A stretch of DNA of 64,000 nt from Deltaproteobacteria bacterium (GCA_019310425.1 JAFDEI010000040.1:108-64107), one strand, 5' to 3'; numbered from the stretch's first letter, positions 17,271 through 42,186 are shown. The notes: a model not told the origin generated them from the sequence alone. A program made the numbers and translations.

Positions 17271-18082
17271 GGCAGCCCCTCCCACGCGACCTGCTCGGCG
17301 TCGAACATCGGTCCGTCGCGACAAACGAGCGCATAACCTCCGGTCGCGAGCGGCGCCGCACAGCCGAGGCACACCCCGAATCCGCAGGCCATGGTGTTCT
17401 CGAGCGAGACCACACACGGACGGCCGCGCGCAGCCGAGATCTCCGCGCAGCGGCGCATCATCGGCGTCGGTCCGCAGACGTAGACGCGGGCCGTCCCATC
17501 CACCGCGAGCTCCGCCTCGAGCAGGGCCGTCACGAGGCCCTGCTCGCCCGCACTCCCATCCTCGGTCGCGAGTCGTAGAGCGACGCCGAGGGATTCGAAG
17601 TCCTCAACGCCCATCAGGTCATCACGCGTCCGGGCCCCGAGCAACACCGACACTTCGGTATTCGCCCGTGCGCGCGCCGCGAGTTCGTAGACAGAGGCAA
17701 TCCCGGTTCCGCCCGCGACCAGGATGGCTCGTTCCCCCGATTCCGGCAGGTCGAACGAGCGGCCGAGTGGCCCCACCAGCGCGACGCGCTGGCCCGGCAA
17801 CACGTCGGCGAGCAGGCCGGTTCCGCGGCCGCTTACTTTGAACAGAATCTCGACCACCGCGCCCGCGCCCGCGGGTGCCGCTCGGTACACCGCCATCGGG
17901 CGCGGCAACAGCGGGTCGCTGCGCACAACATCCGCGCGCGACCCCGGCGACAGCATCACGAATTGGCCGGGGCCGAATCCGCGCCAACCGTCGACCTGCA
18001 GACGCAGTCGCCGGTTCGCGCCACCCTCAGAACGATTCTCGACGACTACGGCGTCGGTCCGAATCGGCACCGGATCAGCCAC
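17267..18082 (-). CDS. pyrK: dihydroorotate dehydrogenase electron-transfer subunit
   Basis: 271 aa with an FNR-like fold (RPMAVY, GPLG, GGTGIA) and the C-terminal 2Fe-2S motif CGFGVCLGCA. Lies directly upstream of class-1B pyrD. Confidence 0.85.
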   Translation of the reverse strand: MADPVPIRTDAVVVENRSEGGANRRLRLQVDGWRGFGPGQFVMLSPGSRADVVRSDPLLPRPMAVYRAAPAGAGAVVEILFKVSGRGTGLLADVLPGQRVALVGPLGRSFDLPESGERAILVAGGTGIASVYELAARARANTEVSVLLGARTRDDLMGVEDFESLGVALRLATEDGSAGEQGLVTALLEAELAVDGTARVYVCGPTPMMRRCAEISAARGRPCVVSLENTMACGFGVCLGCAAPLATGGYALVCRDGPMFDAEQVAWEGLP

Positions 18083-19433
18083 GGTCCACCTCGATCTTCA
18101 GGCTCTTGATCTTGCGCGACAGACTCTCGCGAGCGATCCCGACCGACTCGGCGCTCCGCGAAATATTCCAGTCGTTCGCGCGCAACCGCGCGATCAGGAA
18201 TTCACGCTCGAAATTCCGACGCGCCTCACCGAGCGTTCCCGACTCGAGGCCGACGTTGCCGGGCGTCGGAACGGCGCGGGACGGGGTGGGCAGGTCGGAC
18301 GCACCGATCGTCTCCCCGGGCAGCATGATCACCAGGCGCTCCATCAAGTTCCTGAGCTCGCGCACGTTACCGGGCCAGGTCTGCTGCATCAGTCGTCGTT
18401 CCGCCTCCGGCGTGAGTTTCTTGCACTGAACGCCGGCCGCAGCGCAGAACTCCGCGATGAAAGCTCGGGCCAGGACCGGAATGTCTTCGGAGCGCTCCCG
18501 CAGGCTCGGCACCCGAAACGGAAGCACATTGAGACGGTAGTACAGATCTTCGCGGTAACGCCCCGCAGCAATCTCCTCCTCGAGGTTGCGGTTCGTCGCC
18601 GCGATCACGCGTACGCCGACCTGGATCGTCTCGGTTCCACCAACGCGCTCGAATTTCTGCTCTTGAAGCATCCGCAGCACCTTGGCCTGGGTCATCAAGC
18701 TCATGTCGGCGACTTCATCGAGAAAGATCGTGCCGCCGTCGGCGATTTCGAAGCGGCCGCGCTTGCGCGCCACCGCGCCCGTGAATGCGCCCTTCTCGTG
18801 TCCGAATAGTTCCGACTCGATCAGGTCCTCGGGAATCGCCGCGCAATTCATCTCCACGAACGGACCGTCGGCGAACTTGCTGCGCAGGTGAATCTGGCGG
18901 GCAACGAGTTCTTTGCCTGTACCGTTTTCCCCCGTGATCAAGACCCGGCCGTCGCTCGGGGCAACCGTGTCGATCTGCTGCTTGAGCCGCAAGATGGATT
19001 GGGAATCCCCGATGATTTCCCGCGCCTGCACGTTGTGCGCACGCAGGCGCGCATTCTCACATTCGAGCCGCGAACGTTCGAGTGCGTGCTCGATGGTGAG
19101 CAGCAGTTTGTCGATCGAAAGCGGCTTCTCGATGAAGTCGAACGCACCGAGCCGCGTGGTGCGTACCGCGGTCTCCACCGTCCCGTGCCCGCTCATCATC
19201 ACAACCGGCAGATCGGGCCAACGTCCGCGCACATCGGCGAGAATCTCGACACCATCACGCCCCGGCATCGCGATATCGAGCAACAGCAGCTCGGGCAAGC
19301 CGTCTTGCGCGAGAGACCGCAACGCCGCCTCGCCGTCTTCGCAGGTGGTGGTCTCGAAGCCCTCGTCGCCGAGGATGCCCGCAATCGAGCTGCGGATCCC
19401 CGCTTCGTCGTCGACTATGAGGACGCGTGCCAT
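18075..19433 (-). CDS. sigma-54-dependent response regulator (NtrC family; NtrX-like partner of the upstream kinase)
   Basis: Receiver domain (MARVLIVDDE...LLLLDIAMPG), AAA+ domain (GENGTGKE, ESELFGHEKGAFTGA) and a C-terminal Fis-type HTH (NISRSAESVGIARESLSRKIKSL). Confidence 0.88.
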   Translation of the reverse strand: MARVLIVDDEAGIRSSIAGILGDEGFETTTCEDGEAALRSLAQDGLPELLLLDIAMPGRDGVEILADVRGRWPDLPVVMMSGHGTVETAVRTTRLGAFDFIEKPLSIDKLLLTIEHALERSRLECENARLRAHNVQAREIIGDSQSILRLKQQIDTVAPSDGRVLITGENGTGKELVARQIHLRSKFADGPFVEMNCAAIPEDLIESELFGHEKGAFTGAVARKRGRFEIADGGTIFLDEVADMSLMTQAKVLRMLQEQKFERVGGTETIQVGVRVIAATNRNLEEEIAAGRYREDLYYRLNVLPFRVPSLRERSEDIPVLARAFIAEFCAAAGVQCKKLTPEAERRLMQQTWPGNVRELRNLMERLVIMLPGETIGASDLPTPSRAVPTPGNVGLESGTLGEARRNFEREFLIARLRANDWNISRSAESVGIARESLSRKIKSLKIEVDRG

Positions 19434-19438
19434 CCTCG

Positions 19439-21730
19439 TCAGGCTCCCCTCACCGGGAGTTCGACAACCACGCGGGTGCCGTGCGGTGCGACACCACGGG
19501 CACGCACGTAGCCACGGTGATCGGAGACGATGCGCGAGACGATTGCAAGCCCGAGGCCGGTACCCTGGCGCTTGGTCGAGAAGTACGGCTCGAATACCCG
19601 CCGGCGATCCTCGGGCGGGATCCCGACGCCGTCGTCGGCGATTTCCAGAAGCACGCTCTCGATTGCGGCATCGTGGCTCGTCCCGAGATGAATGCGGCCC
19701 GGAGCGTCGTTCTCCTCGCCGTGGCTGCGGACGGCTGCGACCGCGTTGTCGATCAGATTCGTGAGCATGCGTCGGATCTGATCGCGGTCGAGCTCGAGGG
19801 TGGGCAGATGGTCGTCGAGGTCGACGTCGAATTCGACACCTTCGGTTCCCTGATAGCTCGCGACCGCATCGCGTACGATCCGATTCAGGTCAGCGGGCTT
19901 CGGGTCGGCGGCGGGCAGGCGCGCGAAGTTCGAGAACTCGTCGACGAGCACCTTCAGGCTGTCGACGTGGTCCGAGATCGAATCCACGCACTCATCGAAG
20001 ACCCGCGCATCGTCGCTCTCGCCGAAGCGGCTGCGAAAACGCCTCCGGATCCGCTGCGCCGAGAGTTGGATCGGCGTCAGCGGATTCTTGATCTCGTGCG
20101 CGATCCGCCGCGCGACCTCACGCCACGCCTCCATCCGCTGCACCTTGACGAGCTGGCTGTAGTCGTCGAGTACGACGACGGTGCCGAGGCGCTCGCCGGA
20201 ATCGCCGTGCAGCACTTCGACCGTGACGAGCAACGCCGCGACATCGTCGACGATCGGAACCTGGACCTGTCGGCGGATCGGTCCTCGCGCGGCCGGCTGC
20301 AGATTCCCCGCGAGCAGCTCGAGCAGCTCTTTGCAGCGGGCAACCTCCGAAATCGTGCGACCAACGGCCGCCGTCCCGGGCGGAATGTCGAGATATCGCT
20401 CCGCCGCGGGGTTGATGGTGTGGATCCTGCCGGTCGCGTCGAGCGAGACGACTCCCGCACCGATGGTGCCCACGACGGCCTCCATATAGCGACGGCGACG
20501 CTCCAGTTCCTCATTGCTCTGCTCGATGCGCGTACGCGCATCGAGCAGATCGTGGGTCATGCGGTTGAATGACTGCACCAGAAAGCCCACCTCGTCGTCG
20601 GACGTGCGCTCGACTACGACATCGAGGTTGCCGCGCGCAACCTCGGCCGTGCCCTCCGCGAGCAATCGAATCGGCCCGGTCACACTCTTTGCGAGCCGCA
20701 GGCCCATCCACGAGGCGAGCATCAAGATCACTAGAAACGCGAGCAGCAATTCGAGCAGGTAGGCCGAGCGGATGTGGCCAGCGGTGGGCTGGAGTACCCG
20801 ATACTCGTCGAGTGTCGCGCGAATGCTCGCGACCTTGCGCGACTGCGAGAACGGAATGAACGAGTTCACCACCACCGCACCGAGCCGCTCCGCTGGGCGA
20901 CCGAGCCCGACGATCGGCACCACCGCACGAATCACGTCGCCACTGCCGACCTCCTGGGCCCGCCAGACGGACTCGCCCGCGAGACCATTGCGGACGAGTT
21001 CTCCACCGTGGCTCGAGAAATTCATCGCCGGGATCTCCGGGTTGATCGCGCTCACGAGTTCACGGCCGTCTGCGGCGAAGACCTCGACGACTCCGAGGTT
21101 GTATTCGCGCTGCCGCTCGAGCACATAGGCCTCGAGCGCCTCCGTGGCAGCGCCCAGCAGCAGTCGCTCGCCCGCGATCCCTTCCGCGATCCGCTCGCCA
21201 TAGAACAGCGCACTCTCAGCGGTCGACTCATAGTAGGCCTCGGCGACCTCGCCGCTCTGCTTGAGCGCGCGGTCGACCTGGACACTGAACCACTTGTCGA
21301 TCGACTGCGCGATGAAGAATGCAGACACGATGAATAGACCCGAGGTCGTCATCAGTGCGATCAGCACGAAAGCCACCGCGAATTTCAGGTTGAGCTTCGA
21401 TCCGAGGATGCCCTTGCGCCGCGCACTCACGAGCCGCCAGAAGTTCCGCGCGATCAGGAATCCCAGCAACAAGATCAGCATCACGGTGACGGCGTTCAGG
21501 AACAGGAACAGGCCGCTGTCACCGACGCCCTGCGTCAGCCCCGTGATGGGTGGCAGTAGCAACAACGCCCCCACCACAGCCGCGAGCACGAGGCTGATCC
21601 AGAACTCACGCAGACGGCGGCGGCTCTCGGCGGGCGGCGTCAGCTCCGGGGCCCGGGCTGCCGAGCCGCGGCGGGAAGGCCCGTCACTGGGGGGATGCGT
21701 CGCGGCCTTTGGCGACCGGGCCTCGGACAT
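19439..21730 (-). CDS. membrane sensor histidine kinase, NtrY-like (multi-TM, HAMP, PAS, HisKA, HATPase)
   Basis: 763 aa. N-terminal hydrophobic segments; H-box HEIKNPLTPIQLSAQRI (as in NtrY); N/G boxes NLIDNAVAAV, DDGVGIP, GTGLGLAIV. Ends 5 nt before the regulator gene. Confidence 0.85.
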   Translation of the reverse strand: MSEARSPKAATHPPSDGPSRRGSAARAPELTPPAESRRRLREFWISLVLAAVVGALLLLPPITGLTQGVGDSGLFLFLNAVTVMLILLLGFLIARNFWRLVSARRKGILGSKLNLKFAVAFVLIALMTTSGLFIVSAFFIAQSIDKWFSVQVDRALKQSGEVAEAYYESTAESALFYGERIAEGIAGERLLLGAATEALEAYVLERQREYNLGVVEVFAADGRELVSAINPEIPAMNFSSHGGELVRNGLAGESVWRAQEVGSGDVIRAVVPIVGLGRPAERLGAVVVNSFIPFSQSRKVASIRATLDEYRVLQPTAGHIRSAYLLELLLAFLVILMLASWMGLRLAKSVTGPIRLLAEGTAEVARGNLDVVVERTSDDEVGFLVQSFNRMTHDLLDARTRIEQSNEELERRRRYMEAVVGTIGAGVVSLDATGRIHTINPAAERYLDIPPGTAAVGRTISEVARCKELLELLAGNLQPAARGPIRRQVQVPIVDDVAALLVTVEVLHGDSGERLGTVVVLDDYSQLVKVQRMEAWREVARRIAHEIKNPLTPIQLSAQRIRRRFRSRFGESDDARVFDECVDSISDHVDSLKVLVDEFSNFARLPAADPKPADLNRIVRDAVASYQGTEGVEFDVDLDDHLPTLELDRDQIRRMLTNLIDNAVAAVRSHGEENDAPGRIHLGTSHDAAIESVLLEIADDGVGIPPEDRRRVFEPYFSTKRQGTGLGLAIVSRIVSDHRGYVRARGVAPHGTRVVVELPVRGA

Positions 21731-21929
21731 GGAATCGGCGGCCTCGCGATCGGCGGCCGGCCGCCCACGGGGGCGCCGACGGCGCTGGCTATGAGTTGCG
21801 CAAAAGCGTCTAAACCATCGAAAAAACTAATCAAATAGCTCCTACCATGCAAGCGATTCTGATCAAGAATGAGCATCAATTCGTCGATGAGACCAACGCC
21901 ACCGACCCTCTCGGACACCAGGAGAGCGC

Positions 21930-24900
21930 TTGACCTCGATTCTCGACCGCCACCACGAGCGCTTCCAGGCGACTCCGGGCGACAACCAGGCCTTCGAAGC
22001 CCTCGAGGAGCATTATTTCCTCGCCGGGGACTGGGGCAGAGTCATCGCGCTCTACGAGCACCGACTGACCGCGCCCGCACTCGGAGTGAATCGCAAGGAA
22101 CTTGCACAGGTCCGTTTCCGGATGGGTCAGGTCTACCAGGAGCGACTCGCGGACAGCGACCGCGCGATCGAGTGCTTCACCGCGGTGCTCCAGGACGACC
22201 CGGGCAATCGCCAGGCACTCACTCGGCTGCGCCGGGCCCACACCGAGCACGAACGCTGGGATGTTGCTCTCCAGATTGCCGAGGTCGAGTGCGAGTTGCC
22301 GATGCGGCCGAGTGAGCACGCAACACTGCTCGCCGAGATCGGCTCGATCTGGCTCGATCACCTCGGCGACGCCGAACAGTCGCTCACGCAGTTCGAATCT
22401 GCGCTCAGAGAGCAGCCCGAGCACCGCAGCGCGCTGGAGGGCACAGCGCGAGCCTACGAGAGCTGCGAGCGATTTCCGGAGGCTGCCGGCGCCTGGGAGC
22501 GGCTCGTCGGCCAGCTCAAAGGGTCCGACCGCGCGTCAGCACAGGTCGCTCTCGCCAGGCTGAACGCGGGCCCGCTGGAACAGGCAGAGCGTGCGCACGA
22601 CCTCTACCGCAGAGCACTCGGCGACGACCCGAACAACCTCGATGCGATCGTCGAAGTCGCGGCCCAGACGGAAGCGCGCGAGCAATGGCCTGCGCTCGCC
22701 GACCTGCTGGAACGCCGCTTCGAACTGGAGAACGGGAACAGCGAACGTGCGGAGATCGCTGCCCGAATCGGCCGACTCAACGTCGAACAGCTCGACAACC
22801 CCAGCGTGGCACGCATCTGGCTCGAGCGCGCTGCAGAACTCGGCAGCGACCAGCCGGACGTCTACGAGACACTGGCCGACTTCGCACGCGAACGCAGCGA
22901 CGATGACGCTCTGTTCGCGCACCTGCGACAAGCGCGATCGCTCATCGGAGAATCGGTGCCGGTCTCGATGCTGCTCGAGCTTGCAGCACTCCATTCCGAC
23001 CGCGGTGAGGATGAGAAAGCGATCGTCGAGATCGAGTGCGCACTGCAACGGACTCCCGACGACGCGCTCGCGATCGAATCTCTGTCCGATGCGCTCGCGC
23101 GACAGGGACGCGACGAGGAACTCATCGAGGTGCTGGAGCGGCGAGCGGCGCTCGCCGTGCTCGACCCGGAGGCGCGCGCATCGGCGCACGCCGAACTCGG
23201 CGCGCTGTTCGAAGACCGCCTCGGAGACGCTGAGGCGGCGAGGCGCGCATACGAGCAGGCCTTCGAAGCAGACCCCAGCACGCCGGGTATCGCGACCACG
23301 CTCGAGCGGCTGTACCGAAAGTCCGAAGACTGGGAATCGCTTCGCGACTTCCTCGAGGTCGCGGCGCGATTCGGACCCGAAGTCGAGCGAATCAAATCAC
23401 TGTGCTCGCTCGCCGCGCTCGAAAGCGACCATTTCAGCGATCTCACAGCTGCCGCCCGCACTCTCGAAGCGGCACTCGAACTCGACCCGATGAACCCGGT
23501 CGTGCATCGCGGGCTCCAACACATCGCCATCGAATCCGATGACGAGAACCTGCTGCTCACAGCGTATCGGCGCGAAGCCGACGTCAGCGGCGACAGCAGC
23601 GACCGGACCACCTTCTTGATCGGAGAAGTCACGCGAATCCTCGAGTCGCGCGGCGAAATCGACGAGGCGCTCGACTGGCTGCGCAGCCGAATCGCGACCC
23701 GCCCCGACGACCTCTTCAGCCTCTCGACCTGCGCGGATCTGGAGGAGAAGCTCGGGGATACCGAAGGCTTGATCGCCACCCTCGAGGCGCTCGAAGCCCT
23801 GCTGCATACCGATCTTCAGCTCGCAAACCTGCGTCGTCTCGCCGAGGCCTACGGCTCAATCGCGCGCACAGACGACGCACACGCCGCCTGGGAACGCGCG
23901 GTCGCGATCGACCCGACCGACGTCGAGTCGCTTCGAGCGCTCGCCGCTCACCTCGAGGCGGACGGCCGACTGAACGATCTCGCCGACATCCAGCGGCGCT
24001 TGGCCGACCTGCTGCCCGCGGAAGCGCGAGCAGAGTGCCTGGACGTACTCGCGACTCTGCTGGCGGACCGACTCGGCGATATCGATGGAGCGATCACCGT
24101 CCTCGCGCGGTTGAACCAGGAAGCGCACGCCCCCGACGATGCGCTCGAGCGCTACGAATTCCTGCTCGAGCGCGGTGAACGCTTCGAGGATCTCGTACGA
24201 CACCTCGCGCAGCGAGCCACCGAAGTCGGAGACGGTTCCGCGGTGCTCGACCTGCGCCGCGCCAGGCTTCTGATCGACTTCCTCGACCGGCCGCGCGATG
24301 CAGTCGACGCCTATCACGCCGCCCGGCAACAGGCACCCGAGTCGAGCGAGGCTGCCGAAGGGCTCGAACGCGCGTTGCGGTCGGCGGGCGACATGGCCGG
24401 CCTCGCAACGTTCCTGGCCGAGCAGATGGAGGCGGAGGAGGAGCCGAACGCACGGGATGCCCTCGCGTTCGAACACGCGCAGCTACTCGAGGACGAACTC
24501 GACGATGTCCAGGGTGCCACCGACAGCTACCGACATCTGGCGGAATCCGCCGACAGCCCGGCACTGCGCCTACGCGCGACCGAACGCTTCGAGGCACTGT
24601 TGCTGCGATCTGAAGATTGGGCGGGTCTGCGCAACCACCTCGAAAACACACTCGCAGCCGCAGCCGAAGACACGCGGCCGGAATTGCACGAACGGCTCGC
24701 GAAATTGTGCGCGGACCAGCTCGATGACCCGGACAGCGCCCTCGAACACTTCGAGCAGGCCGCCGCTCTGGACCCGTCGCTGGCCGCGGTCTGGCGAGAA
24801 CTCGCGCATCGCTACGAAGCTTCCGGACGAAACGCCGACCTGCTGGCCGCCTTAAAGGCCGAGCTCGCGACGAGCCCGGACCGCGACAGCGAACTAGCAC

Positions 24901-27900
24901 TCCAGAGCCGCGCCGCGCAGCTGTGTGCTTTCGAGCTCGATGACCAGGAAGCTGCGCTCGCGCACTTCGAGCGCGTGCTCGAGATCGACCCCTCGCACCC
25001 GGCGGCCTCCGAGTTCGTGATCGATCGCTGCGAACGCGCAGGCGACTTCGACCGGGTGGTCGAGCTGCTCGAGATCCGCCTGTCTCGGCTGGATGCCGAA
25101 CCACGAGACAGCCACGGCCCGTGGAGCGCGCAACGCTGCTCGCTGCGCGTGCGCATCGCCAAGATCCGCGCGAACGAGATCGACGACCTCGACGGCGCGA
25201 TCGTCGTGCTCGAACCCGCTCTCAGCGAGATCGGCCCGACGGCAACAGTCGCAGAAGCGCTCGCAGAACTCTACCAGCGTGCCGAATTCACGGAAGACCT
25301 GATCGAACTCTGTCGCAGCGCTGCGACGGCCTGCGAAGTCGAAGCCGAGCGCGCGAACTGGTTCGTGCGCCTCGGCGACGTCCTGCGCGGCGAAGGTCGC
25401 GACCCCGACGCAGCCACAGCTTACCGGCAGGCACTGACAGACCGTCCCAATGACCGGGAGGTCCAGGCATCGCTGCGCGAGATCTACCGACGACTGCGAG
25501 AAGACGAACCACTGGTGCGACTGCTCGAGGTCGAACTCTCGCACCTCGCGGGTGCGGACGAGGTGCCGACGCGACTCGAAATTGCCGAAGTCTTGAGGCG
25601 AAGCCACGACCGCGGTGCGGAAGCACTGCTGCACCTGCGGAGGATTCTCGAGCTCGATCCCGGGCATCACGAAGCACTCGACCAGGCCCTCGAACTCGCG
25701 CCGAAGCTCGGCGCGAGTGATGCTCTCCTCGAGCTGCTCGACCAGGCACTCGGCCGCCCGTGTTCCGACACCGAGCGGGCCGCGTTGCTCGCACAGCGCG
25801 CCCAGCTCCTCGGCGACTCGCTGGATCGCCCCGCTCTCGCGATCGATGACTACCGCGAGGCGATCTCGCTCGACCCAACCCGCTCGGACGGCCGAATCGC
25901 GCTGAGGGCACTGCTCGTGGCGCGTTCCGACTGGGTCGCGGTGCTCGACTCGCTGTTCGAGGAAGCGAGCCGCGAGCGCGGCGAGGCCCGTGGCGCGCTG
26001 TTCGCGCAAGCGGCCGAACTCGCTTGGGAGCAGCTCGAGCCCGACGCGGCGTTGCCGTGGCTGATGCGACTGCGGGAAGAACGGCCACGAGACGCCGAGA
26101 ACCTCGCACGCATCAGCGAAGTCCACCGCAGCGCGCGGCGCGCGGAGCCATTGCTGCGTGCACTCGCGGCTGAGATCCCGACTGCAGAGGCGCCGCTCGA
26201 ACTCCATCGAGAACGCGCACGGATCTTCGAGAACGAACTCGGCTCGCTCGAGCGGGCGCTCGTCGCCCTCGAAGAAGCGCGTGCAGTGGATCTCGACAAC
26301 GTCGAAACACTCCAGGATCTCGAGCGACTCTACCGGCTCACGGAACGTCACAGTGACCGGGCCGTGGTGTTGGAACAGCTGCTCGTGGGAGCGGGCGGCG
26401 ACCGGCGCATCACTCTTCTCTGCGACGCTTCGGCATTGTACGAAAACCACCTTGGAGATCCCGAGCGAGCCGCAGCGCACCTGCTCACCGCAGTGGACAT
26501 GTCGCGTGGCAGTACCCTCTACCCCAACCTGCTGAGTGCACTGGGGAGCGCCTTGCACGACACCGGACGCACCGACGCGTGGGCTCGTTGTGCCGAAGCG
26601 GAGCTGCACGCGCTCGACCCGGAGGCGCCGGTATTCTCCGACCGCCGGCGTGAGCTGCGACGCGAACTCGCAACCGCATATGAGCTGCGACTGGGCCGAC
26701 CCGGCGCGGCGCTGTGTCACTTACGCGAGCTCGCCGATCTGAAATGGACCGAGACTCACGGGGCGGGAACCGGAGAACTCGATGCGATCGAATCCGCGTT
26801 ACTGCGTTTACTGCGTGCCGAGGGTAGCTGGATCGAGTTCGAGACCCGGCTCGGCACACACGTCGAGCGGCATCCGGACGAGGTCGAAGCATGGCGAGAA
26901 CTCGCGCGTGTGCGCGAGGAGCGCCTGCGCACGCCGGTTGCAGCAAATGAGGCCTATCGCGCCGTGCTCGCGCTGCGGCCGGACGACGTCGAATCCATCC
27001 GCGGTCTGCGGCGTTGCTCGGAGCTGGTCGGCGATTGGGAAGTCGTCGCCGAAGCGCTGCGTCTCGAGCTCGACCACGCAGACGACCTCTCCATGCGCGA
27101 GCGCACTGCGCTGCTCCGGCGCCTCGGGGACGTCAGCTGGGAGCGACTCGGGTCGACGACGCGCGCGAGCCGCGCATATGCGTCGGCACTCGAATGCAGC
27201 CCCGCCGACTTCGAAGCGCTGCGGTCCCACCAACGCCTGCTCGAAGCGATGGAGGACTGGTCCGGCGCGATCGACCTGTACGAGAGCGAAATCGAAATGC
27301 TCGGGAACGCCGAACCAGTTCGGCGCCGTGAAGCGTCGCTGCGCGCCGGCGAAATCGCACGGGATCACACCGGAGAAATCGAGCGCGCGCTGCGCAGATA
27401 CCTATGCGCGGCGGAACTCGCCGCACTGTCCGTCGATCGGCGCGCCGAACTCGCAGAGCTGCATCGGCGCAACGGCGACCTCGAAGCCTACGCAGAGGTC
27501 TTCGATGACTGGTGCAACGACTCCGAAGCGCGAGCGGGTGCGGGGGACCACCGGCGGCTGTCGGAAGTCCTCGAACAACTCGGTCGTACTCCGAAAGCCC
27601 TCGCGAGCATCGAACGCGCGGCAGAACTCGAGGCGGAATCAGCCGAGGTCTGGGACTCCGTGGCGCGACTGCGAAATCAATGCGACGACCCGGACGGGGC
27701 CGCGGATGCCCTCGAACTCGCGGCGGAAAGGCTCCCTGATGCCGAGGCCTGCGCCCGGCTGCATCTCGCGGCCGCGTTGACCGAACCTCGGGATGCGGAG
27801 AAAGCACTCGATCGCTACCGCGCGGCGGCACGACGCGACTCGGCCGACGCAATGACCGCGGCTGCGCTCGCGCGCCTCTCTTCTGAACTCGGCGACTTCG

Positions 27901-29798
27901 CCGAGGCCGTCGAAATGGCCGAGCGCGCGCTCGACCTCGGCGAATCCGGAGGAAACCTCGACCCGGAGCTGCTGCGTGACACCGCGCTCGTCGGTGCTCG
28001 CGCAGCCCGCGAGCGCGGCAACGACGAAACCGCGGCACGCTTGTATTCGCGGGTGCTCGCCGACGCCCCGACGCACGCGGACGCACTGGCCGAATACGGC
28101 GAGACGCTCGCGGGACTCGGAGACCTGCTGGGCGCTCAGGCCGCGCTCGAAGCGCGCCTGGAGCGGGGAGAGTCCGACGACGCGCGCGCGCTGCACCTCT
28201 CGATGCTCGGCGCAGCACTCTGCGCGTCCGAAGATTTCGAGACCGCGCGAGTACGGCTCGAAGAGGCGGTCGAAATCGACCCCGAACTCGATCGCGCCCA
28301 CCACGACCTGATTGCCGTCTACGAACGACTGGACCGCATCGACGATGGCATCGGGGCTCTCGAGCGCTGGGCCGACCTCGCCGAGGCCGCTCCGGATCGC
28401 GCCGCGCGCCTGCTGCGCGCGGCCGAATGGGAGCTTCGCTGCGACCATCGCGCCGAATCTGCCGAGCGGCATCTGCGCGACGCGATCGAAGCCGACACCG
28501 GAATCACACACGCCCAGGTGCTGCTCGCGGACCACCTATGGGATCAGGGCCGCGGCGACGAAGCCCTCGAAGTCACTTCACTCGCGCTCGAGGCCGTGCA
28601 GGATTCTGAAGCGCGCGGGAGCCTCACGCTGGTCCAGGGGCGCGCCTACGAAAAGCGTGGCGACCGCCGCGAAGCCGCCGAGGCATTCGGGATCGCGGCC
28701 CGCGAAAACCCGCGCAATATCGAAGCCGCACTTTCGAGCGCGCGCCTGCTACGCGGCCTCGGAGAATGGCAGCCGGCCGCCGACACCCTCGACGCATTCG
28801 CGATGAACCACCCGGGCGACGACGCAGGCGGCCAGGCCGACGTGCTGCAACAGCTCGGACGGCTCATGGCCGGGCCACTCGAAGATGTCGACGGCGCGAT
28901 CTCGGCCTACCGGCGCGCCCTCGAACTCGAACCGGGGCGCATCGACACGCGCGCCGCACTGGCCGAGTTCCTGAGTCACCGTCCCGAAGACCGCGACGAA
29001 GCACTCGACCACCACGAGGCACTGCTCGCGGAGGACCCGACTCACGCGTCGTCGCTGCGCGTCCTGCTTCGGATCGCGCGCGAACAGCGGAACGAAGCGG
29101 CGATCGCGACCGGCCTCGGCGTGCTGCGCGCACTCGGCATCGCATCACCGCGCGAACTCGAGGAAGAGACACCGAGCACGACCTTGCACTGTGCCGGCAA
29201 GCGCGAGCTGGCCGACCCGCTCTGGGAGAAACTACGACGAATCGCGTCCGAAGCGTCGCGAGAAATCGCGCAAGCGCTCGAGGCCTCTCCGAGCCCGTCG
29301 GTCGACGGTCACGCCGACCCGGCCTCGACGTTCCGCGCCGCCGCAATCGCGGCGGAGGGCGAGATCAGCGCCGCGGCGCTGATTCCACTGACCGAACAGG
29401 AACTCGGCGAGGCGTTGACCGTCACCGCAGCCATCGCGCTCGACCCGGAACATATCCACGGCGATGGGCGACTCCTGAACGCGATGTCGAGTGCGATCCG
29501 ACGACGACTGCGGCGACGAATTCGCAGGATCCTCGCAAACGAATCGCTCGAGCGGATCGCCGCGGTCGACTTCGGCGCCTGGCGCACCGAGGTCCGCGCA
29601 CTCGCGAGCGCGATCGCACTCGACCAGACAGATGGCGACCTGCGGACGGCGCTCGCGGTGCTGATCTCCGAGGAATCGGATCGCCCCGTCCTCGATCTGC
29701 CCGCGGACGCAGACCTCACGCCGTACGTCGCGGCCTACCCGCTCGCGCAATCGCTGATGCGGCGCATCGTGCACACCTGGCTCGCGAGCCTCAAGTGA
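21930..29798 (+). CDS. giant tetratricopeptide-repeat (TPR) protein, 2,622 aa, no visible signal peptide or TM segment
   Basis: Single 7,869-nt ORF (TTG start with GGAGAG just upstream). A/L/E/R/D-rich helical repeats carry many TPR-turn signatures, e.g. ALGDDPNNLDA, ALELDPMNPVV, AVAIDPTDVES, VLEIDPSHPAA, ILELDPGHHEA, AISLDPTRSDG, ALELEPGRIDT. The last ~330 aa are non-repeat and include IRRRLRRRIRRIL. Confidence 0.85.
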   Translation: MTSILDRHHERFQATPGDNQAFEALEEHYFLAGDWGRVIALYEHRLTAPALGVNRKELAQVRFRMGQVYQERLADSDRAIECFTAVLQDDPGNRQALTRLRRAHTEHERWDVALQIAEVECELPMRPSEHATLLAEIGSIWLDHLGDAEQSLTQFESALREQPEHRSALEGTARAYESCERFPEAAGAWERLVGQLKGSDRASAQVALARLNAGPLEQAERAHDLYRRALGDDPNNLDAIVEVAAQTEAREQWPALADLLERRFELENGNSERAEIAARIGRLNVEQLDNPSVARIWLERAAELGSDQPDVYETLADFARERSDDDALFAHLRQARSLIGESVPVSMLLELAALHSDRGEDEKAIVEIECALQRTPDDALAIESLSDALARQGRDEELIEVLERRAALAVLDPEARASAHAELGALFEDRLGDAEAARRAYEQAFEADPSTPGIATTLERLYRKSEDWESLRDFLEVAARFGPEVERIKSLCSLAALESDHFSDLTAAARTLEAALELDPMNPVVHRGLQHIAIESDDENLLLTAYRREADVSGDSSDRTTFLIGEVTRILESRGEIDEALDWLRSRIATRPDDLFSLSTCADLEEKLGDTEGLIATLEALEALLHTDLQLANLRRLAEAYGSIARTDDAHAAWERAVAIDPTDVESLRALAAHLEADGRLNDLADIQRRLADLLPAEARAECLDVLATLLADRLGDIDGAITVLARLNQEAHAPDDALERYEFLLERGERFEDLVRHLAQRATEVGDGSAVLDLRRARLLIDFLDRPRDAVDAYHAARQQAPESSEAAEGLERALRSAGDMAGLATFLAEQMEAEEEPNARDALAFEHAQLLEDELDDVQGATDSYRHLAESADSPALRLRATERFEALLLRSEDWAGLRNHLENTLAAAAEDTRPELHERLAKLCADQLDDPDSALEHFEQAAALDPSLAAVWRELAHRYEASGRNADLLAALKAELATSPDRDSELALQSRAAQLCAFELDDQEAALAHFERVLEIDPSHPAASEFVIDRCERAGDFDRVVELLEIRLSRLDAEPRDSHGPWSAQRCSLRVRIAKIRANEIDDLDGAIVVLEPALSEIGPTATVAEALAELYQRAEFTEDLIELCRSAATACEVEAERANWFVRLGDVLRGEGRDPDAATAYRQALTDRPNDREVQASLREIYRRLREDEPLVRLLEVELSHLAGADEVPTRLEIAEVLRRSHDRGAEALLHLRRILELDPGHHEALDQALELAPKLGASDALLELLDQALGRPCSDTERAALLAQRAQLLGDSLDRPALAIDDYREAISLDPTRSDGRIALRALLVARSDWVAVLDSLFEEASRERGEARGALFAQAAELAWEQLEPDAALPWLMRLREERPRDAENLARISEVHRSARRAEPLLRALAAEIPTAEAPLELHRERARIFENELGSLERALVALEEARAVDLDNVETLQDLERLYRLTERHSDRAVVLEQLLVGAGGDRRITLLCDASALYENHLGDPERAAAHLLTAVDMSRGSTLYPNLLSALGSALHDTGRTDAWARCAEAELHALDPEAPVFSDRRRELRRELATAYELRLGRPGAALCHLRELADLKWTETHGAGTGELDAIESALLRLLRAEGSWIEFETRLGTHVERHPDEVEAWRELARVREERLRTPVAANEAYRAVLALRPDDVESIRGLRRCSELVGDWEVVAEALRLELDHADDLSMRERTALLRRLGDVSWERLGSTTRASRAYASALECSPADFEALRSHQRLLEAMEDWSGAIDLYESEIEMLGNAEPVRRREASLRAGEIARDHTGEIERALRRYLCAAELAALSVDRRAELAELHRRNGDLEAYAEVFDDWCNDSEARAGAGDHRRLSEVLEQLGRTPKALASIERAAELEAESAEVWDSVARLRNQCDDPDGAADALELAAERLPDAEACARLHLAAALTEPRDAEKALDRYRAAARRDSADAMTAAALARLSSELGDFAEAVEMAERALDLGESGGNLDPELLRDTALVGARAARERGNDETAARLYSRVLADAPTHADALAEYGETLAGLGDLLGAQAALEARLERGESDDARALHLSMLGAALCASEDFETARVRLEEAVEIDPELDRAHHDLIAVYERLDRIDDGIGALERWADLAEAAPDRAARLLRAAEWELRCDHRAESAERHLRDAIEADTGITHAQVLLADHLWDQGRGDEALEVTSLALEAVQDSEARGSLTLVQGRAYEKRGDRREAAEAFGIAARENPRNIEAALSSARLLRGLGEWQPAADTLDAFAMNHPGDDAGGQADVLQQLGRLMAGPLEDVDGAISAYRRALELEPGRIDTRAALAEFLSHRPEDRDEALDHHEALLAEDPTHASSLRVLLRIAREQRNEAAIATGLGVLRALGIASPRELEEETPSTTLHCAGKRELADPLWEKLRRIASEASREIAQALEASPSPSVDGHADPASTFRAAAIAAEGEISAAALIPLTEQELGEALTVTAAIALDPEHIHGDGRLLNAMSSAIRRRLRRRIRRILANESLERIAAVDFGAWRTEVRALASAIALDQTDGDLRTALAVLISEESDRPVLDLPADADLTPYVAAYPLAQSLMRRIVHTWLASLK

Positions 29799-29808
29799 GA
29801 CACGCGGC

Positions 29809-30168
29809 ATGACGACGTCCGAAACAGAACGGCGGCGCCGCTACCGCAGACAGACCGTGCGCGTGCTGGTGGAGTATCTCTCCGACGCGGGGGTGTCGTG
29901 CGATACCGCGATCACGCTGGGAGCGGGTGGAATGTTCATCCAGACCGATGCTCCGCTACCGATCGACTCGATGATCAAACTGTCTTTCCAGCTCCCCGGC
30001 GGCTCGCTGCTGCACGAATTCGAAGGGCGCGTCGTATGGGCGAACCGCCCCTCCCGGGGTGCCTCCGGCGCACTCGGCATGGGGATCGGCTGGAGCGACC
30101 CACGCGCATCCCAACGCCTGGCCAACGAGATCGAGCACCTGGTAGGAATCGAAGACGCTCCAGCCTGA
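29809..30168 (+). CDS. PilZ-domain-like protein (119 aa)
   Basis: N-terminal ERRRRYRRQTVRV carries the RxxxR motif. About 20 aa later comes AITLGAGGMFI, a non-canonical version of D/NxSxxG, followed by a beta-barrel-like sequence (LSFQLPGG...FEGRVVW). Starts 10 nt after the TPR gene stop. Confidence 0.7.
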   Translation: MTTSETERRRRYRRQTVRVLVEYLSDAGVSCDTAITLGAGGMFIQTDAPLPIDSMIKLSFQLPGGSLLHEFEGRVVWANRPSRGASGALGMGIGWSDPRASQRLANEIEHLVGIEDAPA

Positions 30169-31330: not shown

Positions 31331-33892
31331 TCAACCGGCCAGCGCCGCCTTGAGTTGGGTGAGGATCTCTCGCGCCGACTGGAAGCGCTCGGACGGATCC
31401 TTCTTCATGCAGCGCATGATGATGTCCACCAGCAGCTCCGGCACATTGGGTTCGATCTCGCGCGGGTCGGGCGGCGGTGTGTGGACGTGGTGGTACGGCA
31501 GGTTGCCCTCGATGAACGGCAGCCTGCCGGTCGCCATCTCGAATACCGAGACCCCCAGCGAGTAGATGTCGGTGCGGTGGTCGACGTTCTTCCCGAGTGT
31601 CTGCTCGGGGCTCATGTAGTAGGGCGTGCCCGACACCACGGTCGTGTGGTTGCGCACCTCCTCGATCACCTTCGCGAGGCCGAAATCCATGATCTTCGCC
31701 TTGCGATCACGCGCCCACATCGTATTCGCGGTCTTGATATCGCGATGAACGATCTTGTTGTCGTGCGCATATGCGAGGGCCTCGCTCATCTGGGCGAGTA
31801 CGTGAACGATGCCGCCGGCCGAGATCTTGCCGCGGTGCTTCACGATTTCCTTCAGTGTATTGCCGTCGACGTATTCCATCGCGATGTAGTAGACGCCGTC
31901 CTGTTCGCCAGCGTCGAAGACGGTCACGATGTTCGGGTGGTTGAGTGAAGCCGCGCTCTTGGCTTCGCGCAGGAAGTTCTTCAGCGCCTGCGGATTCTCC
32001 TGCAGGCTGTCGGGCAGCACCTTGAACGCCACCACTCGGTCCAGCACGGTGTCCTGCGCCTTGTAGACCACCCCCATGCCGCCGCGGCCGAGAGTTCCGA
32101 GGATCTTGTAGCGACCCTCCCGCCCCGAGGTGCCGAGCCGCGGCTCATCGGTCGCGGCCATCTGGGCCTCGGCCTGCTTCCGGGTCTCTTCGAGCCGGGT
32201 CGTGACGTCCTCGTAGTTGAAGTCGAATGCGAGGATCTTCTCGTAGAGGTCGGTCGCCTGGCGCGCCTCGTCGTTCGACTCGTAGCAACGCGCGAGAGCG
32301 TAGAAGGCCTTGACGTTGCTGCGCGCAATCTCCTGGGATTCAGTCGCCTGGGTGAGCTTCTTCAACGCGAGCGGAAGCATTCCCCGCTCGCGGAAGATCT
32401 CGCCGAGCAGAGCCGAGGCTGCGACGAAATCGGCATGCTCGGGAGCAACCTCCTGGAGCGCGGTAATGGCTTCGTCGATGCGACCGCCGGCAATTTCGAT
32501 CTCGCCAGCGCGCAGGAATTCGCCCGCCTTGAGGAGCATCTCGGACTCGCGCTCGACGTTGCCCGATAACGCGAAGTTCTCCGCGGCCTCTGCGTAGAGT
32601 CCCGCGCGTTCGTAGCTCTCGGCCGCGAGCGTCCGCTCACCTGCGACGGTGTACATCTCGGCTGCCTGAGCGCTGTCACCGAAGCGCTGGTATACCTCGG
32701 CCGCCTTCAGGTACTGCTCGAGCAGCCGGTAGAGATCCGCGGCCGCGAGCAGATCACCCGCCTCGATGAAGTGCTCGGCAGCAAGCTCCTCCTCGTTGCG
32801 GTCACGGTGGTATTCGGCGAGGTATCGGGCGGCCTCTTCCGTGCGACCGACCTTGCGCAGCTGCTCGGCTGCGCGCGTTACGTTCTTCGCCTTCAGGAAC
32901 AGTTCAGCGGATTCTTCGTTCTGGCCGCGACGCAATGCGATCTCCGCAGCCTCTGCAAAGCAGCCGCCCCGCTGATAAACCGCCTGGGCGCGCTCATCGA
33001 GCTGGGCGCGTTCGAATAGACTGCCGGCCATGCTCACGAGCTTGCGGAGGTCCGCGGCCTTGCGCACATCGCCGCCGACGCCGACCGATTCGTCACGAAT
33101 GACTTCCTCGAGGGACTCGGCCGCCTTCTCCCACTGCTCACACTTGACGAAGGCCTTGGCCGCGTGCCGCGCAAAGCCCGAAACCGAATAGGCGCGCGCA
33201 GCGTTCCGGAAATCCTTGGCCTTCTCGTACATCTCCGCGGCGACACTCAGGTCGCCGGCCTCTTCGTACGCCTCGGCGGAGCGACGCCATTCCTCCTGTT
33301 GAGCGAAGATCGTAGCGGCGCTCTCGTACAACCCCGCCTGGATATAGAGCTCCGCCGATTCGATGAAGCGATTCTGATCATGCCGGATCTCAGCAGCATG
33401 CTCGAAGCTTTCGCCATCGATGAAGTACTGCGCGGCTTCCTCGAACAGCCCGTGATTGAAGCAATGCTCGGCAGCCTCGAGTGGCCTACCCGACTTCGCC
33501 ATCGACGCAGCAGCCTTGACGGCCCTCTTCTTTTCCTTTGGATCGACGTAGGCGGTCGTCTGCGGTTCCAGCGTCGACTCATCACCCTCATCGGGAACAG
33601 CCTTCCGCTTCCCGGGAAGCAGCATCGTGATCGTGAGCACCAGACCGAGCGGCGCGAAGCCGTAGAGCACGAGTGCGTGCGAAAGGAACGGGTCCATCCG
33701 GTTGACGAGATCCGCGGGCAGGAATTCGAGCAGACCGGAGCCGGCAGCCAGCAGACCACTCTCCACGAGTGAGCGCACCTGCATGACCGCGGTGTGGTCC
33801 GCCATGTACGCGCTCGCGAGCGCGAGGGCCCCCACCGCAACCAGTGCGAGCCCGATGCCGAGAGTCAGAATCCGAATCAACCGCTTCACCAC
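31331..33892 (-). CDS. membrane-anchored TPR-repeat protein with C-terminal Hanks-type Ser/Thr kinase domain
   Basis: 853 aa. Two N-terminal hydrophobic segments, then ~450 aa of TPR-like repeats (AAE.Y...G....A). The C-terminal kinase has [31 protein letters not shown] and GTPYYMSPE. Confidence 0.88.
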
Positions 33893-37349: not shown

Positions 37350-39521
37350 ATGTCCGAGATCGCAATCGGAATCGACCTGGGAACCAGCAACTCGTGCGTC
37401 GCCGTGATGCAGAACGGCAAAGTGGAAGTCCTCCCCAACGCCTACGGCGAAGCCACGACCGCCAGCGTCGTGGCCTTTCGCGAGGACGGCGGGATCAACG
37501 TCGGGAACGCCGCCAAGGCGAACATCATCCATTGCCCCGATCGGACGGTGCACTCCTCGAAGCGCCTGATCGGACGCTACTTCTTCTCGCAAGAGGTGAA
37601 GAAGGCTCAGGCCATCTGCTCGTATCAGATCATCGAGGCAGAGAACCACGGGCTGCGAATCCAGGTCGGCGAAGAGTGCTTCTCGCTGCCCGAGATCGCA
37701 GCGATGATCCTGTCAGAAATGAAATCCATCGCGGAGGCCCGGATCGGCCAACCCGTCACCAAGGCTGTGATTGCCGTCCCCGCGTACTTCAACGACAACC
37801 AGCGCCAGGCCACCAAGGATGCGGGACGCATCGCGGGGCTCGAAGTGCTGCGGATCCTGAACGAGCCGACCGCCGCGGCGCTGTCGTACGGCTTCGGCCG
37901 TGGCCTGTCGCAGCGCGTCGCGGTTTGGGACCTCGGTGGCGGCACCTTCGACATCTCGGTGCTCGAAATCGGCGACGACGTCTTCGAGGTGCTCTCCACC
38001 GCGGGAGACACCTTCCTCGGTGGCGAGGATTTCGACGACCGCCTCATCGACCTGCTCGCCGACGAGTTTGCCGTTCGCACGGGCATCAACCTGCGCAACG
38101 ACCCGTTCGCCCTCGAGAAGCTCAAAGTCGCCGCCGAGGGCGCCAAGAAGGGATTATCACTGGAGTCAGAAGTCGAGATTCGCATCCCGGACGTGATTAC
38201 GGACGAGAACGGCGAGAGCCACTCGATCGAGCGCAGCCTCACGTCAATCGAATACGCGGCGCTCGTAAACGACCTGGTCCAGACCACTTTCAAGGTCTGC
38301 GACGAAGCGCTCCAGCAAGCCGGCGTCGTCGCGCGCGACCTGGATGGCGTGATGCTGGTAGGCGGCCCGACGCGACTGCCGCTGATCCGCGACACCGTCC
38401 GGGAGTACTTCCAGCAGGAGCCGCGCGAGGGCATCGACCCCGACCGGGTCGTCGCAATGGGAGCCGCGATCCACGCCGCCTCGCTCGTGAGCCCGGATCA
38501 GGAAGCCTACCTGCTCGACGTCACACCGCTGTCGTTGCGAATCGGCATCGTGGGTGGGCTCGCCGAGAAGGTGATCGAACGCAACACCCCGGTCCCGATC
38601 GAGCAGACCCGCACCTTCACGACCTTCAAGGACGGGCAGGAGTCCGTCGAGATCAAGGTCTTCCAGGGCGAGTCCCAGGAGGCTGAGGATAACGAGTTGC
38701 TCGGGCAGTTCTCGTTCGCGGATTTCGACAAGGGAGCCCGCGGCGAAGTCGAAATCGACGTCACCTTCGAGATCAACACCGACGGCATCGTGAGCGTGAC
38801 GGCGACCGATCGGGCGACCGGTCGGGCCGCCTCCACGCGCATCACCCTCTCGTCGGGCCTGTCGGAGGACGAACTCGATGACATCATCGATCAGGGTCGC
38901 ACCGATCGAATCGAGCAGACCCCGGTCCTGGACGAAAATGACCATGTGATCGGCGCGATCCCACTGAAGAGCATCCCTGCAGATACGCCGGTGATCTTCG
39001 AAGAAACCCGCGCGTCGAAGACCAAGCTGCTCGACGACGACAGCGATCTGATCGAAGAAGGCGATATCTTGCCGCTCGACGAAGCGCCCGCAGTCCCGGA
39101 AGCGGCACCGGTGACGGCCGCCCCTGCCGAAGGACCGACGGGAGAAAGCGGTGAAGCGCCCCAGCTGAAGTCCGAGCCATCAGCATTCGACCTGAGCGAG
39201 AAGACCGCTCAGGTGAACTCCAGCGACCCCGACGAGATCGCGGCCTTTTCGGGCAACTTCGCCGAGAAAGCCGTCGACCCGATCGCGATCAGCACCGAGG
39301 ATGAAGGCGACGAACTCGACCTGATCGATCTCGACGACGACGCCGAGGATCTGGACCTGCTCGGGGGAGACGATGAGGACGACCTCGGCGGACCGATCCT
39401 CGAACTCGGTCGCGACGCCGAACTCGCCGACACCGAGCCGGTGATGACGAAGGACGAGTTGTTCGAGACGCCTGGTACCGACCTGTCGGCGCTCGACGAC
39501 GACTCCGAGGAGCCTCGCTAG
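37350..39521 (+). CDS. atypical Hsp70 family protein (NBD and beta-sandwich SBD; helical lid replaced by a long acidic tail)
   Basis: [64 protein letters not shown] and [10 protein letters not shown]...[15 protein letters not shown]. The last ~190 aa are low-complexity and D/E/L-rich ([28 protein letters not shown]). Confidence 0.88.
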
Positions 39522-42072: not shown

Positions 42073-42186
42073 GCGCATTCCTCACCCGAGTACGACCTGG
42101 GACGAGAACTCTGCTCGTTGCGGAATCGAGCCGTCAACCCCAGGGTCCGCTTGCCCCCGGGTGGACGGCCTCTTATTCTGCCGGGC

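Follow-up and report, generated by a model that had tools for sequence, protein, structure and literature searches.

A giant tetratricopeptide-repeat protein and a single-domain PilZ protein form a conserved gene pair in uncultured Myxococcota

We analysed a 64,000-nucleotide (nt) stretch of DNA from a genome labelled Deltaproteobacteria bacterium (GCA_019310425.1 JAFDEI010000040.1:108-64107), hereafter the window, which contains one exceptionally long gene and a small companion. The long gene encodes a 2,622-amino-acid (aa) protein made almost entirely of tetratricopeptide repeats (TPRs), here called the giant. The companion encodes a 119-aa PilZ-domain protein and begins 10 nt after the stop codon of the giant, on the same strand and with no signal between them. 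A preliminary description of the locus, made without database searches, gave the coordinates of the 7,869-nt giant open reading frame (ORF) and of the small ORF exactly, and the strings that it quoted are present (IRRRLRRRIRRIL in the giant, RRRYRR and AITLGAGG in the small ORF). The pair comprises the following features.

21920..21924, plus strand: Shine-Dalgarno-like AGGAG, 5 nt 5' of the TTG of the giant, read from the sequence
21930..29798, plus strand: giant ORF, 2,622 aa, TTG start, one uninterrupted frame
21930..29108, plus strand: TPR array, aa 1 to about 2393, with about 57 detectable TPR-like units and about 66 at most by length
28857..28886, plus strand: GRL(L/M)AGPLED, aa 2310-2319, the most conserved motif of the entire giant
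29109..29795, plus strand: all-helical C-terminal domain, aa 2394-2622 (about 230 aa), family-specific, no relative found
29496..29534, plus strand: Arg-rich helix IRRRLRRRIRRIL, aa 2523-2535, consensus LGRRxRRRLRRxL
29809..30168, plus strand: single-domain PilZ protein, 119 aa (Pfam PF07238, 42.3 bits against a cutoff of 22.5)
29833..29853, plus strand: RRRYRRQ, PilZ aa 9-15, containing RxxxR (R10...R14)
29908..29931, plus strand: A-(T/I)-T-L-G-A-G-G, PilZ aa 34-41, an invariant loop that replaces (D/N)xSxxG

In the alignment of the family, the consensus N terminus (MxxxLxRHRERF) starts exactly at the TTG codon of the giant. Long ORFs with a gene-like GC content at third codon positions (GC3) also run antisense to the giant, as follows.

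22536-23189, minus strand: antisense ORF
23856-24476, minus strand: antisense ORF
24894-26720, minus strand: antisense ORF of 608 aa
27639-28535, minus strand: antisense ORF

Because the GC content at first codon positions of the giant (GC1, 0.785) about equals its GC3 (0.771), in a gene rich in Ala, Leu, Glu, Arg and Asp, these are shadow ORFs, and the frame of the giant is the real one. Such shadow ORFs are a pitfall for gene callers based on composition. The giant carries a net charge of -211 and contains only 0.6% Lys; acidity and Lys depletion are family-wide, with charges from -59 to -226 (median -142). We found no transmembrane (TM) segment in the giant (the maximum Kyte-Doolittle mean over 19 residues was 1.32) and no signal-peptide-like region in its conserved N terminus, and with these export signals absent the protein is predicted to be cytoplasmic.

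A word-indexed search recovered 107 full-length homologs of the giant, which are 38-87% identical to it and 2,603-2,693 aa long; judging from this near-identical length, the giant ORF is a single product. The most divergent giants known to us, from three loci (L064-L066), share 32-35% identity with it, and an identical protein (P0001) is present in an NCBI metagenome-assembled genome (MAG) labelled ‘Deltaproteobacteria bacterium’. One genome from each GTDB species was scanned by pattern, the GRL(L/M)AGPLED motif having been picked automatically as a search pattern specific to the giant family, and this yielded 101 relatives in 71 loci, all from uncultured MAGs. Most of these MAGs are labelled Myxococcota, Myxococcales or Deltaproteobacteria, and a few are evidently mislabelled bins. 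In twelve loci (L003, L008, L017, L022, L026, L027, L042, L049, L050, L058, L062 and L064) the giant is carried under other taxa, with titles such as Gammaproteobacteria, Spirochaetales, Spirochaetaceae, Opitutales and Acidobacteriota. Those with enough flanking sequence show the gene order common to the family, and the odd titles are probably binning or labelling errors. Databases name the giants only ‘tetratricopeptide repeat protein’ or ‘hypothetical protein’. As the preliminary description had supposed, the module seems not to have been reported: in the literature we found no description of the giant family or of an operon that joins a giant TPR protein to PilZ.

Searched against Pfam and NCBIfam, the giant has TPR-class matches only, every one of them under the equivalog cutoffs, which agrees with its earlier characterization as an essentially all-TPR cytoplasmic protein. 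An iterated repeat profile (a hidden Markov model) detects about 57 TPR-like units with a period of about 36 aa, reaching to about residue 2370, and TPR-like helices extend to about residue 2393. The earlier count of at least 15 turn signatures was too high, as a strict regular expression finds 11, but the repeat nature that it conveyed holds, since shuffled sequences contain 2.8 +/- 1.6 and at most 8. Autocorrelation peaks at 71, 143, 213 and 286 aa reveal a di-TPR super-period of about 71.5 aa. A five-TPR super-repeat of about 179 aa, prompted by the spacing of DP turns, was rejected, as peaks at 107, 180 and 252 aa are weaker than those of the di-TPR.

At the DNA level we found no tandem repeats of the TPR period in the giant, and the TPR repeats are therefore ancient. 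The homologs are colinear from end to end and essentially gap-free, so that every repeat has its own ortholog; on this evidence, the array of the giant is neither fluid nor evolving in concert. That homologs align over about 2,620 residues with about 0% gaps argues that each repeat may have its own conserved role, as expected of a multi-site platform. The most conserved stretches include aa about 1550-1600, about 1700-1800 and 2310-2319; within the last of these, L2312, G2315, P2316, L2317 and E2318 are invariant in both giant alignments.

The array gives way to a distinct C-terminal domain of about 230 aa, shorter than the approximately 330 aa first proposed. An AlphaFold2 model of aa 2283-2622 is all-helical and of high confidence (predicted local distance difference test (pLDDT) 93.2; predicted template modelling score (pTM) 0.89). 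In a Foldseek search of this model against the PDB, only the part of about 100 residues that consists of TPRs was matched, and nothing was matched at E <= 1e-3. We found no Pfam match to the domain among 33 members, and no PDB sequence relative by profile. An exhaustive phmmer search of 1.84 billion representative proteins placed the domain in only 173, always at the extreme C terminus, and all of these are giants or contig-truncated fragments; a profile search agrees with this restriction. The Arg-rich helix is a patch of basic charge in a protein that is acidic elsewhere, and the model predicts it as a helix (H243-252) at high pLDDT. R2525 is invariant and R2528 is at least 90% conserved in the 28-sequence full-length alignment, whereas the equivalents of these residues are conserved at 90% or more, or lower, in a broader set of 33 sequences.

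Some short matches to the domain resembled stand-alone genes, and the idea that the C-terminal domain and PilZ form a conserved core was considered and withdrawn. Two of these genes (L077 and L078) run off the edge of their contigs and are truncated giants, and two others (L074 and L076) lie in assemblies riddled with frameshifts. In L074 and L076 the genes, that of the giant and its neighbours alike, are broken up or joined together, with a 1,217-aa kinase-LpxC ‘fusion’ and a YebC-RuvC ‘fusion’ as examples, which points to indel errors rather than biology. The last (L075, 9952-10768) arose by an out-of-frame deletion of about 7 kb that removed the whole TPR array: the first 20 codons of the giant are joined to the C-terminal region in another frame, and PilZ, lpxC and the kinase gene are intact downstream on this metagenome contig. 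This is a deletion allele or pseudogene, or else an artefact of assembly.

The arrangement of the giant and PilZ genes is conserved in both directions. Among loci that reach past the stop codon of the giant, 58/63 have a co-oriented PilZ gene at a distance of -53 to +58 nt (56/61 without two loci that were fetched twice), and in several the stop and start codons overlap by 1 or 4 nt. One further locus has a lower-scoring PilZ gene, inverted and 1.2 kb away. The remaining four, among them those of the three most divergent giants (L064-L066), lack one. In these three (L064, 5324-12919; L065, 9857-17497; L066, 2-5029), lpxC directly follows the giant. From the other side, a metagenome scan with the PilZ alignment found the C terminus of the giant immediately upstream in 67/68 loci that had at least 200 nt of upstream sequence; the sole exception has just 261 nt. 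The pairing is thus reciprocal and near-obligate, and the synteny that had been suggested as a check on the first proposal is conserved.

The pair lies in a block that is syntenic across the lineage, comprising pyrD/pyrK, a histidine kinase and response regulator (HK/RR) in some loci, the giant, PilZ, lpxC, a TPR-Ser/Thr kinase gene, ruvBAC, yebC and dnaK; this synteny holds even in a 5.8-Mb chromosome. The adjacency of giant and PilZ might accordingly be nothing but frozen gene order without a functional link, as the synteny of the entire pyrD-(HK/RR)-giant-PilZ-lpxC-kinase-ruvBAC-yebC-dnaK block and the PilZ-less giants would allow. We regard this as very improbable: the two genes share one strand with tight gaps and frequent stop/start overlap, the PilZ subfamily follows the giant in nearly every locus, and the pair outlasts the loss of its neighbours, with PilZ retained both in the approximately 15 loci from which the HK/NtrC-type pair is absent and in the approximately 6 that lack lpxC. 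Functional coupling of the two proteins is, in our judgement, very likely, and the best explanation of the locus is a vertically inherited, co-translated operon of one uncultured Myxococcota lineage. A defence-system reading was also rejected, as PADLOC models matched 0 families for the giant or PilZ and the context is housekeeping and vertically inherited.

The assignment of the small ORF to the PilZ fold, proposed earlier, is borne out by its Pfam score, by its AlphaFold2 model and by Foldseek. In the model (pLDDT 82), a barrel of six strands bears a C-terminal helix and, at the N terminus, a disordered arm, of which residues 1-12 have a pLDDT below 50 in the apo form; the top structural matches of the model are the PilZ domains of Alg44, CeSA, PA0012, MotI and XAC1133. 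The score against TIGR02266, the family of Myxococcus-type PilZ paralogs, is below the cutoff (52.2 bits against 68.7), which places the protein in a subfamily that is related to, but distinct from, TIGR02266; we found no literature on the latter. The nearest solved structures by sequence are the Xanthomonas orthologs 3CNR, 3DSG, 4F48 and 7LKQ (E of about 1e-8, residues 39-111).

PilZ domains that bind cyclic di-GMP (c-di-GMP) canonically carry RxxxR and (D/N)xSxxG motifs, and the two fare differently here. The first, described from the outset as clear, is kept: the arm RR(R)(Y/F)RR is invariant across 55 members, and the columns of R10, R13 and R14 are conserved in 52/53, 53/53 and 53/53 sequences, respectively, and invariant in A2. 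The second was rightly called non-canonical, but rather than having decayed it is replaced by an invariant, family-specific loop, ATTLGAGG (AITLGAGG in this protein), in which A34, T36, L37, G38, A39, G40 and G41 are each found in 55/55 members. The D/N of the canonical motif corresponds to A34 and its Ser to T36, and the turn between beta2 and beta3 has 2 extra residues (model strands E28-36 and E41-45). The protein therefore resembles c-di-GMP-binding PilZ adaptors (the Alg44 PilZ domain, PA0012, MapZ and MotI) in its beta-barrel and disordered Arg-rich RxxxR arm, and differs from canonical ones in this loop and its longer turn.

Motif content cannot settle the ligand, because Myxococcus xanthus proteins defy motif-based prediction both ways: PlpA, with the motifs present, fails to bind c-di-GMP, and PixB lacks the motif-2 Ser and binds it (PMC8316039). 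Single-domain PilZ proteins act in trans as adaptors (PMC8389850; PMC11250160; PMC11725899), and clusters of them with defective motifs are common (bioRxiv 10.1101/2020.02.11.943704). The PilZ protein could thus be a ligand-independent structural adaptor, like the PilZ proteins XAC1133/PA2960 and FlgX, with c-di-GMP binding lost and with arginines that contact the acidic surface of the giant or another partner instead of a nucleotide. Its closest relatives in the PDB are of this kind, including XC1028 (3DSG), the entry title of which reports only trivial c-di-GMP binding; the motif-2 D/N is an invariant Ala in a lengthened loop; PlpA is a precedent for non-binding even with canonical motifs; and the giant, at -211, would be a natural partner for the RRRYRRR arm. 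Against this, non-binding clusters usually have a defective RxxxR (bioRxiv 10.1101/2020.02.11.943704), whereas R10, R13 and R14 are invariant here, PixB shows that c-di-GMP can be bound without the motif-2 Ser, and the residues through which XAC1133 contacts its partners are not conserved. We consider a purely structural adaptor rather unlikely.

These partner residues bear on how closely the protein follows the Xanthomonas model, in which XAC1133 bridges PilB and FimX and binds the N terminus of PilB (PMC8389850). Like PA2960, XAC1133 and XC1028, it is small (they are about 117 aa) with the same barrel and C-terminal helix; it shares the G-x-G-(I/V)-x-F-x-D block of the XAC1133 group, and the PilB-binding W69 of XAC1133 aligns with its invariant W77 (PMC8389850). 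By contrast, F49 and L51 of the FimX interface align with K57 (Lys in 53/55) and S59 (Ser, Ala or Arg), and the V/M117 motif, which is essential for PilB binding, is not conserved, residues 112-119 being variable and often absent. RxxxR is intact here, whereas XAC1133 lacks it by our reading of its sequence, and PA2960/XAC1133 have been placed among the defective-motif clusters (bioRxiv 10.1101/2020.02.11.943704). The genomic partner is a TPR giant and not pilB or fimX. On these comparisons, the PilZ protein is a relative of the PA2960/XAC1133 group and not a member of it.

This kinship raises a role in type IV pili, in which the giant would be an enlarged SgmX-like protein and PilZ would recruit or activate the extension ATPase PilB. 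SgmX of M. xanthus is a 14-TPR protein that stimulates type IV pili and recruits PilB to the pole by a mechanism that has not been established (PMC11580455). Binding to MglA-GTP and FrzS also characterizes SgmX-type regulators. By its description in the literature, it is, like the giant, a cytoplasmic Myxococcota TPR protein (PMC11580455), and Xanthomonas PilZ, the closest in sequence to the PilZ protein here and sharing its key Trp, binds the PilB N terminus (PMC8389850). We nevertheless find the idea improbable. Neither the 64-kb window nor the conserved neighbourhood contains pil genes, and V/M117, required for PilB binding, is not conserved. The giant, with about 60 TPRs against 14, is 2.5 times as long as SgmX, which we take to be about 1,060 aa, and its C-terminal domain is unrelated, a comparison made with SgmX as described; no PilZ partner has been described for SgmX.

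To our knowledge, giant cytoplasmic TPR proteins are rare in bacteria, and GltI is the only one that has been studied, its part as a multivalent organizer of a motility machine having only begun to emerge. The analogy with GltI/AgmK that the preliminary description drew is fair with respect to architecture. GltI is a 3,822-aa cytoplasmic TPR scaffold, modelled at about 1,100 Å, with a helical C-terminal domain and several sites for the GltG FHA domain, and it has been proposed to be a long multivalent scaffold (PMC11761067). By proportion to that published model, the TPR part of the giant would be about 60-70 nm long. Because GltI/AgmK (MXAN_4863) shares the giant cytoplasmic TPR array, the helical C-terminal domain and the phylum Myxococcota, the giant might be the GltI/AgmK ortholog of its lineage in the Agl-Glt gliding machine. 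This is a very remote prospect. The giant has 2,622 aa against 3,822-4,132 aa, and its C-terminal domain was found only in proteins of about 2,400-2,650 aa or fragments, with none of GltI size (about 3,800-4,100 aa) among the 1.84 billion representatives and no match longer than 2,642 aa. gltI sits in the G1 cluster with gltD-J (PMC3169522), whereas no glt or agl genes lie near the giant, as noted before for this locus, either in the window or in more than 60 loci, in which the neighbours are the HK, the NtrC-type RR, pyrD/K, lpxC, the kinase gene and ruvBAC. Pairing with a PilZ gene has not been reported for GltI, and relatives of the giant were found only in uncultured MAGs, the pattern-limited species scan returning no cultured (gliding) genus. 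Set apart by gene context and the sizes of its relatives, the giant family would represent a second giant cytoplasmic TPR family, unrelated to GltI and with a new C-terminal fold.

The gene on the other side of PilZ suggests an envelope role, in which the giant would be a LapB/YciM-like regulator of lpxC or a BcsC/PelB/AlgK-like export scaffold with a PilZ receptor. lpxC is convergent, 7 nt from the PilZ stop codon, and is a neighbour in most loci; TPRs and PilZ are combined in alginate and cellulose systems, and the PilZ domains of Alg44 and BcsA are structural matches; and the giant has weak NCBIfam TPR matches to LapB and PrsT. LapB/YciM has an N-terminal membrane anchor and a C-terminal rubredoxin; BcsC, PelB, PgaA and AlgK have a signal peptide or lipobox, and the first three also have a C-terminal beta-barrel porin. 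The LapB profile score, 68 bits, is below the cutoff of 363, the giant lacks both an N-terminal TM segment and a signal peptide, and its all-helical C terminus has neither a beta-barrel nor any Pfam domain, rubredoxin included, so we rejected both the LapB and the periplasmic export (BcsC/PelB/PgaA/AlgK) identities. In addition, the pair is retained in about 6 loci from which lpxC is absent, no glycosyltransferase is encoded in the operon, and the PilZ protein is soluble and consists of one domain. Of the readings considered, an envelope role is the least probable.

We hypothesize instead that the giant and PilZ constitute a lineage-specific mega-scaffold with a dedicated PilZ adaptor, a proposal that we put forward tentatively. 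The giant would serve as a cytoplasmic scaffold without enzymatic activity, rod-like in shape and built of about 60 TPRs that are each conserved, with an acidic surface, and would be capped by a unique helical domain of about 230 aa that bears a conserved poly-arginine helix. PilZ would be its dedicated subunit and would bind it. This adaptor may couple the platform to a partner, a small ligand or both through its invariant Arg-rich arm (RxxxR) and ATTLGAGG loop, which would bind a nucleotide or an acidic protein surface. The parts of this proposal differ in strength. That the giant is a multivalent scaffold seems likely, and we lean modestly towards physical binding of PilZ to the giant. A response of PilZ to c-di-GMP is conceivable but something on which we hesitate, and we are evenly divided as to whether its ligand is c-di-GMP bound in a non-canonical mode. 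The gating of partner recruitment by PilZ, hypothesized in the preliminary description, is not supported as a c-di-GMP-dependent process. The fullest version is a second-messenger-switchable mega-scaffold, in which the disordered RRRYRRR arm docks as a peptide ligand in an acidic TPR groove and is freed or moved when c-di-GMP or another nucleotide wraps around it at ATTLGAGG; the nucleotide would thereby shift how a platform of about 60-70 nm is assembled or loaded with partners, and the platform would organize a process on the scale of the cell. This we judge quite unlikely as a whole.

Several observations weigh against the scaffold-and-adaptor proposal. The whole pyrD...ruvB neighbourhood is syntenic across the lineage, so the adjacency of the pair partly reflects general gene-order conservation and is weaker evidence than it would be in a shuffled context. 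The giants of L064-L066 exist without an adjacent PilZ gene, and PilZ would therefore be dispensable to the giant. Among the genes scanned in the window and neighbourhood, none encodes a partner machinery, and neither the genes nor the RNAs that were scanned in the window include a c-di-GMP riboswitch, cyclase or phosphodiesterase; no Rfam family, riboswitch or otherwise, was found there. In PilZ, the second c-di-GMP motif lacks its canonical D/N and differs in the geometry of its loop. Last, a covariation analysis, in which a partial Mantel-type test compared PilZ distances with 150-aa windows along the giant, had its peaks at aa 1-150 and 226-375, but the profile was no different with LpxC and RuvB as controls, and the peaks were rejected as non-specific.

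Comparison of giants with and without PilZ offers one weak lead to a docking site, as follows.

23991..24272, plus strand: aa 688-781 of the giant, in which about 72 aa (one TPR pair) are deleted in the PilZ-less L064 and L065

L064 and L065, the two full-length giants without a PilZ partner, are effectively one lineage. Relative to controls (equally divergent giants that have PilZ), they preferentially lose conserved positions in aa about 200-400 and about 700-800. Over aa 701-800, 23% of conserved positions are kept, as against 77% in the controls. The C-terminal domain is not specifically relaxed. We therefore mention aa 688-781 as a candidate PilZ-related site.

Giant TPR scaffolds and single-domain PilZ adaptors are known kinds of protein; what is new is their obligate pairing, the fixed architecture of about 60 repeats, the unmatched C-terminal domain and the invariant non-canonical PilZ site. 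If PilZ binds c-di-GMP through ATTLGAGG, the sequence rules for predicting PilZ receptors would widen; if it does not, it would be another PilZ protein turned pure protein adaptor, in this case while retaining RxxxR. As a trait that is conserved and present in single copy across a widespread lineage of uncultured Myxococcota, the pair would provide a compact system for asking how a scaffold that measures tens of nanometres is addressed by a small adaptor.

Beyond the pair, the window contains the following features.

3105-4241, plus strand: ORF of 378 aa without a Pfam match
18075-21730, minus strand: HAMP-PAS histidine kinase and NtrC-type sigma-54 activator, divergent from the giant
30166-30168, plus strand, and from 30176, minus strand: stop codons of PilZ and the convergent lpxC, with a 7-nt gap
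31331-33892, minus strand: protein of 853 aa with an N-terminal TPR/SNAP-like region and a C-terminal Ser/Thr kinase, one gene from the pair in virtually all loci
37350-39521, plus strand: Hsp70/DnaK-like protein, 723 aa, extremely acidic (net charge -87)
39525-40037, plus strand: small DnaJ-domain protein with TPR, 3 nt after the DnaK-like gene
42118-44118, plus strand: unusual fusion of an AhpC/TSA-redoxin to a multihaem cytochrome (c554, MtrC-like, c7), 666 aa
55775-57610, minus strand: ORF of 611 aa without a Pfam match

The HK/NtrC-type pair is present in about two thirds of loci, with a faint NtrY_N match in a relative. Scans for promoters and terminators found nothing beyond shuffle expectation. 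A candidate sigma-54 promoter at 21786-21799 (TGGC-N6-TTGC), which had seemed to tie the operon to the divergent NtrC-type activator, has a spacing 1 nt shorter than the canonical one and, among 52 upstream regions, is kept only in the window and its closest relative; it was rejected. The 7 nt between the stop codons of PilZ and lpxC leave no space for a terminator of either gene, and no terminator-like site was found in the gap; the one minus-strand terminator-like match inside PilZ (29847-29832) does not exceed the number given by shuffles (4 found and 5.1 expected).

In loci without lpxC, the TPR-kinase gene and PilZ converge directly. In Pkn1 of M. xanthus, a Ser/Thr kinase is fused to PilZ (PMC8316039), a possible Rosetta-stone hint that the TPR-kinase belongs with the giant-PilZ module. 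M. xanthus also has PilZ proteins fused to DnaK/DnaJ domains (PMC8316039), and the HSP70 gene ends the conserved synteny block in other loci too. Of the two ORFs without a Pfam match, only that at 3105-4241 passed a filter for coding-like GC3.

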